This document shows, piece after piece, positions 2,080-60,101 of a stretch of 64,000 nt of DNA. Where the stretch lies: the NCBI GenBank assembly GCA_951406725.2, contig OX597838.1:8618001-8682000 (forward strand). Reading direction: 5' to 3'. The notes beneath the pieces are model-generated. The model was not told the DNA's origin, did not search any database, and saw only the letters and a program-made list of their open reading frames with translations. A program made the position numbers and the translations under genes. Origin of the DNA: Octopus vulgaris (lineage: Eukaryota). How positions within the stretch are numbered: the first letter of the stretch is position 1; each line of letters opens with the position of its first letter.

Positions 2080-2115
2080 GCAAACGTAATATGTGACAAT
2101 TATTCGGTAGCCATG

Positions 2116-2174
2116 ATAAAACTCCGAGTTTCGGATGCCGAGGTGGAAATCCACGTGACCATCTCTTCAGTTAT
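2116..2174 (-). ncRNA. Type I hammerhead ribozyme motif (Penelope-type), in a short element abutting (TA)n
   Basis: Minus strand: AUAA-CUGAAGA-GAUG..CAUC-c-GAAACUCGGAGUU-UUAU; intact core, palindromic stem III ACUC-G-GAGU. Confidence 0.7.
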
Positions 2175-14709: not shown

Positions 14710-14741
14710 CTGAAGAGGAGATAACCACTCCGAAATGCATG
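14710..14741 (+). ncRNA. Hammerhead motif with decayed cleavage site
   Basis: CUGAAGA-GGAG-auaacca-CUCC-GAAA-UGCAU-G; palindromic stem III, position 17 is G, weak stem I. Confidence 0.5.
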
Positions 14742-21906: not shown

Positions 21907-21944
<38 letters not shown>

Positions 21945-22061
21945 TTACTTGGAGAAGAGAAACGACGCGTGCGTTCGGTCATATAATAACAATATAATAA
22001 ATAAATAAAATATATGCATATATACATACATATATGTACATACTTACATCCATATGTATAT

Positions 22062-22115
<54 letters not shown>

Positions 22116-22118
<3 letters not shown>

Positions 22119-22510
22119 TATAGGACACCACAAATAAACGTAGAACACAACGAGAACGAAAACATAAAATCAAACAAGGAAACGGACTTTTTTAACAACG
22201 AAAAAACAGAGTACAGGTCAAACAATACAAGGAAAATTCCCCTTCATCAGCTGCCCCTGGTTCGACTCAATGCGTGTTTCGAAGGTAAGGGCAGAACACG
22301 GCCAGACCGAAGCAGTCCTTCCTGCAAAAGGAATTAAGTAAAATTATTTTGCAGAGGGGTAAAACAAGTGACAAGAACAGGACGTAAAAGCAATACAAAT
22401 GAAGAAAAAACAGTAGAAAAAACAGTACAAATAAAGAATAACAGGACAGGGAACCAACAATAAGGGCTTTTTTTAAGGCCTAGACGGTGGAAAAATTAGA
22501 ACGCATGTGA
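22116..22510 (-). mobile_element. Short U-rich element carrying a non-circularly permuted hammerhead (22230-22321)
   Basis: Minus strand: GAAGG..CGUG-UU-CUGCCC-uua-CCUUC-GAAA-CACG..GGGCAG-CUGAUGA; abuts (TA)n. Confidence 0.75.
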
Positions 22511-22652
22511 AAAATCACGTGTCTGTGGAGTACTCAGCCACTTGCACTCTGATCTTCCTCCCTCAGTCCAGCTATCTCCCACTCCTCCTCTCTCAGTTAC
22601 GGAGTCACCACGATATGTGTGTGTGTGTGTGTGTGTGTACATAAAATGTATA

Positions 22653-23040
22653 TACTCTTTTACTCTTTTACTTGTTTCAGACATTTGACTGCGGCCATGC
22701 TGGAGCACCGCCTTTAATCGAGCAACTCAATCCCGGGCACTTATTCTTTTGTAAGCCCAGTACTTATTCTATCGCTATCTTTTGCCGAACCAAGCAAGTG
22801 ACGGCAACGTAAACACACCAGCATCGGTTGTCAAGCAATGCTAGGGGGACAAACACAGACACATATACATATATATACGACGGGCTTCTTTCAGTTTCCG
22901 TCTACCAAATCCACTCACAAGGCTTTGGTCGGCCCGAGGCTATAGTAGAAGACACTTGCCCAAGATGCCACGCAGTGGGACTGAACCCGGAACCATGTGG
23001 TTGGTAAGCAAGCTACAAACACACAGCCATTCCTGCGCCT
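22653..23040 (-). mobile_element. SINE family A, full length
   Basis: Complete head-to-tail match to 43472-43886. Confidence 0.92.
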
Positions 23041-51224: not shown

Positions 51225-51418
51225 GTTAATCCAAACATGAAAGCACAAAGAGAAAACACAACAACGCGAGGACGTGAAACAAGTGTAGTGTCATTGGACG
51301 CTCAGGAAAGGAAAGGATTTTAACGTTTCGAGCGGAGCTCTTCGTCAGAAACATAGGAAAAGGAAAATACAAGGAAGGGAAGACGGAGGAAAAAAAATCT
51401 CCAACGATAAACACGCAG

Positions 51419-59100: not shown

Positions 59101-59231
59101 CATCATCTTTTTTTTTCAACGCATACATAAACATATATATATGCATACATACATACTATCGTGCATACATGCAAACATGTACGCCTGCAAATTTAAATGC
59201 GCACATACTCTATACACTTACATATAGAGGG

Positions 59232-59319
59232 GGCTGGCCGAGTTGGAGCAAATATCAGAATTGAACAGCCGAAATTTGCTATGATGATTCGGTGTCTGAC
59301 TGAAGATTGAAGGCTTCGA
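59232..59319 (+). ncRNA. Non-circularly permuted hammerhead ribozyme candidate with kink-turn (copy 1)
   Basis: GGCUG/CAGCC, GCAAA-UA/GAAA-UUUGC, UCAGA/UCUGA-CUGAAGA, k-turn with UAU bulge and GA/GA. Confidence 0.75.
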
Positions 59320-59365
59320 ATGATTTGTCTGTGTTCCGTGTTCGTCCCTTCCTGTATTTCACGTT

Positions 59366-59453
<88 letters not shown>

Positions 59454-59539
59454 AAAAGACCAAAAGGGTACGGGCGTCGCTATAAATATATGTATATGTA
59501 AAAAGGAATCTAATGTGCTTGGCTTAGATTTTCCTTGGG

Positions 59540-59625
59540 GGCTGGCCAGATCGGAGCAATCTCAAGATTAATCAGCCGAAATTGCGAGGATGATCCGGTT
59601 CTCGACTGAAGATTGAAGGCTTCGA
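59540..59625 (+). ncRNA. Non-circularly permuted hammerhead ribozyme candidate with kink-turn (copy 2)
   Basis: GGCUG/CAGCC, GCAA-UC/GAAA-UUGC, UCAAGA/UCUCGA-CUGAAGA, k-turn with GAG bulge and GA/GA. Confidence 0.75.
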
Positions 59626-59939
59626 ATGTCCCGTCCGTGTTTTTTGTATCGTCTTCTAAATGTTTCACGTTCTTGTCCCAGTTTGTATTTTTTACATATT
59701 CATATATATATGTAAGTATATATATATAATATATATATATATAAGAACAGAGAGGAAAGAAAGAAGACAGTATAAGGGTGACGAAAAGAAGGAGAAAAAA
59801 GTTGTGCAGAATTTAGATACATACTACCAAGGTGAGCAAATGGTGTACGTACATCGCTAAACGTATATATAAACCCCAAATACGAAATAAGAACGTAACG
59901 GACGACAATAAAAACATACGGACATACATATATATATAT

Positions 59940-60097
59940 GCAATGGGCTTCTCTCAGTTTCCATCTATCAAATCCACTTACGAGGCTTTGGTCGGGCCGA
60001 GGCTATAGCAGAAGACACTTACTCAAGGTGCCAGACAATGGAACTGAACCTGGAATCATGTGGTTGGGAAGCAAGCTTCTTACCACACAGCTATGCC
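59940..60097 (-). mobile_element. SINE family A 5' half
   Basis: Head match. Confidence 0.8.
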
Positions 60098-60101
60098 TGA
60101 C

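Follow-up and report, generated by a model that had tools for sequence, protein, structure and literature searches.

The window analysed here, a stretch of 64,000 nucleotides of Octopus vulgaris DNA, raises the question of whether the elements of a hammerhead core, laid out in an order that none of types I-III uses, can still make up a self-cleaving ribozyme, and what kind of element would carry it. The original prediction described two such copies, each with a UH site, a GAAA and a CUGANGA, cleaved after 59254 (AUA) in copy 1 and after 59561 (AUC) in copy 2; both copies and all of these elements lie where they were described, and the predicted cuts were placed correctly. The pattern stemII-GAAA...CUGAnGA matched the window twice and none of 100 shuffles. 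A structural descriptor likewise gave two matches (0 in 30 shuffles), namely copy 1 and a new copy on the minus strand that goes beyond the two first described, while copy 2 was missed by it because of a mismatch in stem I. This mismatch, noted at the outset, is present and is a minority variant, 12 of the 13 distinct copies of its family being fully paired. The two divergent copies are real, but they are not duplicates of one insertion; they are members of two separate high-copy families (families 1 and 2). In the terms of Eckert et al. (2023), where a hammerhead consists of blocks S, G and C, each assumed to be uninterruptible (PMC10085705, as far as available), the parts are as follows.

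59230 to 59368, plus strand: 3' end of a family 1 element, 5'-truncated, with (TA)n at its end
59232 to 59236, plus strand: copy 1, stem II 5' strand (10.1-10.5), upstream of the cleavage site; partner 59266-59270
59238 to 59247, plus strand: copy 1, 5' strand of the bridging ('I') helix and GA of the putative kink-turn; partner 59283-59292
59248 to 59259, plus strand: copy 1, block S, with stem III strand 59248-59252, U16.1 at 59253, H17 = A at 59254 (predicted cut after 59254) and stem I strand 59255-59259
59260 to 59279, plus strand: copy 1, 6-nt linker, then block G, with stem II 3' strand 59266-59270, GAAA 59271-59274 and stem III strand 59275-59279
59280 to 59292, plus strand: copy 1, 3-nt bulge and GA of the putative kink-turn (59280-59284) and 3' strand of the bridging helix (59285-59292)
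59295 to 59306, plus strand: copy 1, stem I 5' strand and CUGAAGA core; A9 is 59306, and stem II does not come next
59307 to 59320, plus strand: copy 1, near-palindrome after A9, including a 4-bp alternative stem II partner
59453 to 59503, minus strand: inverted piece of a family 2 tail at the 5' junction of copy 2 (Penelope-type inversion)
59503 to 59711, plus strand: 3' end of a family 2 element, 5'-truncated
59540 to 59612, plus strand: copy 2 ribozyme, with stem II 59540-44/59573-77, bridging helix 59546-53/59591-98, putative kink-turn GA 59554-55 and 59586-90, stem III 59556-59/59582-85, predicted cut after 59561, stem I 59562-67/59600-05 (one mismatch), GAAA 59578-81 and core 59606-12
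59613 to 59626, plus strand: copy 2, near-palindrome after A9, the same as that of copy 1
22229 to 22321, minus strand: third copy, of the same topology with unrelated stems (family 4), in a truncated element at 21940-22516; UU site with the predicted cut between 22295 and 22294; an internal loop, the canonical kink-turn being absent
22229 to 22243, minus strand: third copy, near-palindrome after A9

A comparison with Rfam, which the original prediction had suggested, gave no hammerhead match at the window copies down to E=10, and a scan of the window returned no hammerhead or kink-turn family, only microsatellite look-alikes. A canonical type I reading downstream of CUGAAGA was rejected by eye, the stem I partner being absent. 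Elsewhere, the window holds a minimal hammerhead of the canonical Penelope type (type I), degenerate and built on a CUGACGA core, in another repeat family (about 51310-51350, minus strand), CUGAAGA...CGAAA in canonical order at about 2110-2170 (minus strand) and 14710-14740 (plus strand), possibly decayed type I hammerheads, and an abundant SINE-like repeat, also seen in many of the fetched loci, at about 59960-60098 (plus strand) and 22780-23040 (minus strand).

Read 5' to 3', the motif runs from the stem II 5' strand through the bridging helix and the kink to stem III, the UH site and stem I, then over a short linker between stems I and II (2-6 nt) to the stem II 3' strand, GAAA and stem III, and back through the kink and the bridging helix to stem I and CUGAnGA. 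The blocks stand in the order S-G-C, not in the circular order C-G-S of types I-III, which form three-way junctions free of pseudoknots. What had been described as extensions are present and resolve into a kink-turn and an 8-bp helix. MAFFT alignment across families did not bring the stems into register, and pairs were therefore counted by anchoring on the core in five hand-picked natural representatives (families 1, 2, 3 and 4 and the older subfamily L395), with partner offsets of 20-25 nt set by hand, so that the figures are a hand count on related sequences and not an R-scape result. In these hand-aligned representatives stems I-III are paired in 70 of 70 cells, and double-sided changes occur at 13 of 14 core-anchored stem positions (sole invariant pair G10.1-C11.1), bearing out the claim that the stems change sequence yet stay paired. 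The bridging helix is in register in 4 of the 5. The residues of the hammerhead core are kept (C3 U4 G5 A6 N7 G8 A9, G12 A13 A14 A15.1, U16.1, H17): CUGAnGA is found in 9/9, 13/13, 13/14 and 27/28 parsed copies of families 1-4, respectively, and H17 is A, C or U in 62 of 64. Core, stem pairing and covariation across families together support the reading as a rearranged hammerhead. MFE folding did not recover the structure (z -0.71 to +1.21), which is expected because of the pseudoknots; it is uninformative and lends the reading no support.

The partner of stem II lies 20-25 nt upstream of U16.1, and at least 5 pairs with this upstream strand are the modal state in all four families (9/9, 11/13, 5/14 and 23/28 distinct copies of families 1-4), while in none of 64 distinct copies can the base that follows A9 pair with C11.1. 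On this pairing the chain is open between A9 and G10.1, and the CUGAnGA strand is not continuous with stem II. An ordinary type SGC ribozyme would instead use the 3' strand after CUGAnGA as its active stem II partner, the upstream strand being a competing or inhibitory one, and would leave a bulge after A9 of 5 nt in families 1 and 2 and of 1 nt in family 4. Such a downstream partner does exist, as originally predicted. It comprises 4 bp beginning 5 nt after A9 in families 1 and 2, with 4 Watson-Crick pairs in 8/9 family 1 and 13/13 family 2 copies, and 4 bp (2 G-U) beginning 1 nt after A9 in family 4; in family 1 the next bases can even replace a strand of the bridging helix (-5.0 kcal/mol), and the arrangement would agree with the published block rule (PMC10085705, available in part). 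Yet the downstream partner is the weaker in every family, with upstream and downstream duplex energies of -10.0 and -6.2 kcal/mol in family 1, -9.9 and -6.2 in family 2, -9.6 and -0.7 in family 3, where it is absent, and -7.3 and -3.1 in family 4. Nor was it made out when the Naiad consensi in the accessible part of their file were inspected by eye; the replacement of the bridging helix is nearly lost in family 2 (-1.4 kcal/mol), and the kink-turn requires the upstream strand. We therefore regard an ordinary type SGC as improbable and retain the upstream GGCUG strand of the original prediction, which pair counts, duplex energies and covariation all favor. In families 1 and 2 the 3' partner may serve as a post-cleavage switch.

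The junction of stem III and the bridging helix we take to be a kink-turn, from the Kt-7 (box C/D type) consensus. Its register (canonical stem, 3-nt bulge, G-A/A-G, non-canonical stem) is found in families 1, 2 and 3 and in L395, so that in 4 of the 5 representatives a kink-turn joins stem III to the helix bridging stems I and II; in family 4 another internal loop takes this place and the canonical kink-turn is absent. L7Ae-family/15.5K proteins bind kink-turns, and by analogy 15.5K/L7Ae could bind the one in the ribozyme.

Directly after A9 stand near-palindromes that differ in sequence (window 59307-59320, 59613-59626 and, on the minus strand, 22229-22243). Their self-dimer energies are -15.0, -15.0 and -18.4 kcal/mol in families 1, 2 and 4, while as a hairpin that of copy 1 reaches -0.4 kcal/mol only. 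This self-complementarity, kept in different sequences, and the tandem arrangement of the elements would suit an active species that is a dimer or trans complex of neighboring units held by the palindrome, and minimal Penelope hammerheads are said, in work of Lunse et al. from 2017, to be dimeric or trans-acting. Family 3, however, has no such segment (-6.0 kcal/mol), a single stretch of ~75 nt can form all stems, stem III is not short, and dimerization could be an add-on instead of an alternative; we hold an obligate complex of this kind to be highly improbable. The near-palindrome of families 1, 2 and 4 could serve to cap the open end, to form dimers or to turn off the 3' product.

Cleavage of the RNA would be expected to leave many tail-primed cDNAs with an end at the cut, and 5' truncations in the genome were tallied accordingly. 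In family 2, the first 100 of 1,536 matches gave 37 loci in which (TA)n lies no more than 14 nt from the anchor (hand tally). Of these, 35 start at +1 to +4 (17 at +1, 10 at +3, 8 at +4) and 2 at -4; positions -1 to -3 have no starts, although AT microhomology would favor junctions there (p=6e-15 for a uniform spread). The step is weaker in family 4, where 24 of all 34 loci start at +1 to +4 (2 of them ambiguous with -1) and 10 upstream (p=1e-7). Among the 88 usable copies of a position-ordered sample, for which 90 places were fetched, 6 starts fall at +1..+4, 21 at +5..+45 and 4 at -1..-40; the excess at +1..+4 over downstream positions is about 3-fold only (p=0.003 over -40..+45, p=0.03 against downstream positions only). 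Within the ribozyme, truncations in these 88 copies are scarce in the 5' half, with 4 starts against 27 in the 3' half.

In families 2 and 4, whose sequences are unrelated, the truncation edge thus coincides with the predicted bond, and the step may be read as an indirect footprint of in vivo cleavage. The same step could arise from reverse transcriptase stalling at a helix boundary if the motif no longer cleaved, whether as a dead relic or as a conserved signal of structure or protein binding; truncations at +5 to +45 are indeed common (21/88), and the continuity of A9 and G10.1 is broken. The catalytic residues and the UH rule are nonetheless kept in four sequence families, the family 2 edge lies exactly at +1 among those first 100 matches, and the same edge recurs in the unrelated sequence of family 4, so that we consider a relic or signal quite improbable.

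The elements carrying the motif are abundant in the host genome (2.8 Gb, rich in microsatellites). First-look candidates number 1,348 for family 1 (copy 1), 2,026 for family 2 (copy 2) and 3,141 for family 4, and a 21-mer common to families 1 and 2 has 2,883 exact matches, the control none. Both of these families are young, their best 40 matches being about 98-100% identical. Their units (698-720 nt in family 1; 699-769 nt seen in family 2) occur as partial tandems, are 5'-truncated, end in (TA)n some 100 nt beyond the core, and in some copies carry inverted 5' pieces; the two have in common only a stretch of ~150 nt around the ribozyme (78%). The family 4 unit is about 800-830 nt. Of the 'short (TA)n-embedded' elements first proposed, the (TA)n stands, but the elements are tandem units of ~700-830 nt of which the window holds the 3' ends only. 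Partial tandem repeats, 5' truncation, inverted 5' copies, a tail and a microsatellite target are together the hallmarks of Penelope elements. For families 1, 2 and 4, no plausible reverse transcriptase (RT) or endonuclease ORF was seen in 60 flanks, and blastn found no homology between their units and active Neptune-type elements. Four read sets each yield a contig running across the unit junction, which in two of the sets takes in nearly the whole unit (738 and 748 letters); the RNA origin of these sets is a guess and tandem DNA explains the contigs equally well, so they were not used as evidence of expression. Among 80 of 121 viral-contig loci there were 0 descriptor matches.

Family 3 links the motif to Naiads, a clade defined by an N-terminal GIY-YIG and a C-terminal RT in one element. 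It lies downstream of the Naiad RT on the sense strand in 11 of 30 Naiad-RT loci, no family 1-3 match was found at 40 Neptune-type loci, and the published consensi Naiad_Obim and Naiad_Ovul contain family 3 with this topology (PMC8557442, accessible portions); a motif taken from them has 688 genome matches against 96 in the control. The hallmarks and family 3 at the Naiad RT support the proposed Penelope link, with the amendment that the related clade of the 'Penelope-dependent' elements is Naiad and not canonical Penelope. Family-1/2-like copies near the Naiad RT in loci L395 and L414 were considered as Naiad parts and rejected, as they look like separate insertions. Families 1, 2 and 4 appear Naiad-like in fold only, with no ORF attached; their mobilizer, and their descent from Naiads, are inferred from topology alone. 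Naiad RT matches that were scored look decayed, the Naiad ORFs found are fragments, and an RT fragment used as query gave no match in protein and metagenome searches. Because these Naiad RT matches look decayed while families 1 and 2 are young, a mobilizer acting in trans is needed, and Neptune-type elements with intact 781/784-aa ORFs could supply it. Two such families were seen (L091-L094 and L162-L165, with ORFs of 781 and 784 aa and an upstream ORF-like region), the first with CCAAT-like tandem repeats in its 3' UTR and an apparent type I hammerhead with an altered core.

Craig et al. (2021) described Naiads as being without a descriptor-fitting hammerhead and flagged cases of 'HHR_core' and 'HHR_half_core' in 18 consensi (10 and 8 term matches, respectively, in the part of PMC8557442 available). 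We read by eye the passages around four core 7-mers in its File S5 (54 Naiad consensi), covering 56/62 places with CUGAUGA, 27/43 with CUGAAGA, 23/23 with CUGACGA and 15/25 with CUGAGGA, some being hidden by line breaks; spider, horseshoe-crab and ostracod cores were left out of the topology counts. The split topology was recognized in 10 of the 54 consensi, three from Acropora, two from Octopus and five others, the last assigned by file order only (a ctenophore, Clytia, two in the Morbakka-Pomphorhynchus stretch and one crustacean). These ten amount to about seven independent sequences with different stems, and the kink-turn is clear only in Octopus. Six nematode consensi (File S5 parts 13-16) read as type CSG with block C intact, and no core was recognized by eye in the bivalve stretch of the file. 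The split topology and the nematode type CSG would explain the 'half-core' annotation. A chelicerate Naiad (File S5 part 17) seems to carry a stem II hairpin between the site and GAAA and no partner after the core, possibly a further arrangement.

Taken together, the sequence evidence makes it quite probable that the motif is an active, self-cleaving split-core hammerhead, a seventh strand arrangement, near the 3' end of non-autonomous, Naiad-related tandem retroelements. Its fold would be the type SGC ring with a sharp bend closing it between the bridging helix and stem III, and with its opening shifted to the step from A9 to G10.1. The short linker and the bridging helix would keep stems I and II side by side, a role played by loop-loop contacts in canonical hammerheads, while the kink-turn would fold the extension of stem III back along the II/III stack, toward stems I and II. 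Tandem transcripts would be cut once per unit to give unit-length RNAs; reverse transcription primed ~100 nt downstream would run off the cleaved 5' end and leave short copies starting at +1 to +4, and where it continued through uncleaved or ligated RNA, partial tandems would result. The young families would borrow RT and endonuclease in trans, and monomers may be circularized, by analogy with type I retrozymes, for which this is reported in the available part of PMC7229834.

Beyond this locus, we think it reasonably likely, from sequence and from the accessible parts of the published consensi, that many Naiads across animal phyla, along with thousands of non-coding hitch-hikers, process their RNA by non-circularly permuted hammerheads, of type CSG in nematodes and, in cnidarians, octopuses and others, of the form with the A9-G10.1 opening, and that the cephalopod fold is closed by a kink-turn through which a host L7Ae-family protein could control cleavage. 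If so, the limit of six block orders for hammerheads would be broken, and the backbone link between A9 and stem II would be dispensable in nature. Non-circular RNA permutations would move from metatranscriptomic contigs to animal genomes, in thousands of copies, and the result would bear on a question of Penelope biology, Naiads being said to lack hammerheads in the part of PMC8557442 available. Descriptors of types I-III miss split forms, and retrozyme censuses would therefore be undercounts.

The original prediction was right that the order UH-GAAA-CUGANGA is not that of types I-III, but the block order S-G-C as such has already been published (PMC10085705, available portions, also for what follows). 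There, type SGC was validated, its stems I and II being connected by a short linker and also by a bridging helix; no insertions of more than 1-2 nt are reported between CUGAnGA and its stems, a direct link between the bridging helix and stem III is described as hard to fit on the crystal structure, and type CSG is known from two sequences only. Like type SGC (HRIMA-1 and variants), the window motif has the order site-GAAA-CUGAnGA, a short linker, a bridging helix and the full catalytic core. Unlike type SGC, in which the stem II 5' strand lies 0-2 nt from CUGAnGA, its stem II 5' strand lies upstream of the site and is not joined to CUGAnGA, its bridging helix is continuous with stem III on both strands via the kink, and it resides in animal genomic retroelements; it would work like type SGC, yet it falls outside SGC membership. 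The accessible text of PMC10085705 mentions neither kink-turn nor octopus, and the accessible supplement neither Octopus nor metazoa. The portions seen of PMC13725137, PMC10162972, PMC3088659 and 10.64898/2026.07.22.740005 do not describe the same topology, and the open-access literature searched holds no description of the split arrangement, of permuted hammerheads in Naiads or of a natural hammerhead with a kink-turn. In that literature we could not find in print the opening between A9 and G10.1, the kink-turn or the occurrence in animal retroelements.

The bend itself resembles Kt-7/box C/D kink-turns in 4 of the 5 representatives, differing in that it sits inside a ribozyme and is absent in family 4. 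As in Naiad elements (PMC8557442, portions available), the ribozyme lies in a 3'-UTR position and the elements have (TA)n targets, partial tandems, inversions and tails; unlike Naiads, families 1, 2 and 4 carry no ORF, and the resemblance to Naiads that they show is one of fold, not of sequence. Closest in organization are the animal non-LTR retrozymes, which are also non-coding tandem units with one hammerhead each (PMC7229834; 10.64898/2026.07.22.740005, both available in part) and are thought to be mobilized by Penelope-like elements (PMC7229834). The search of Li et al. (2026) used type I models only, as far as the accessible part of 10.64898/2026.07.22.740005 goes, and retrozymes are ~170-400 nt long with type I hammerheads, whereas the families of the window are ~700-830 nt long with a non-circular arrangement.
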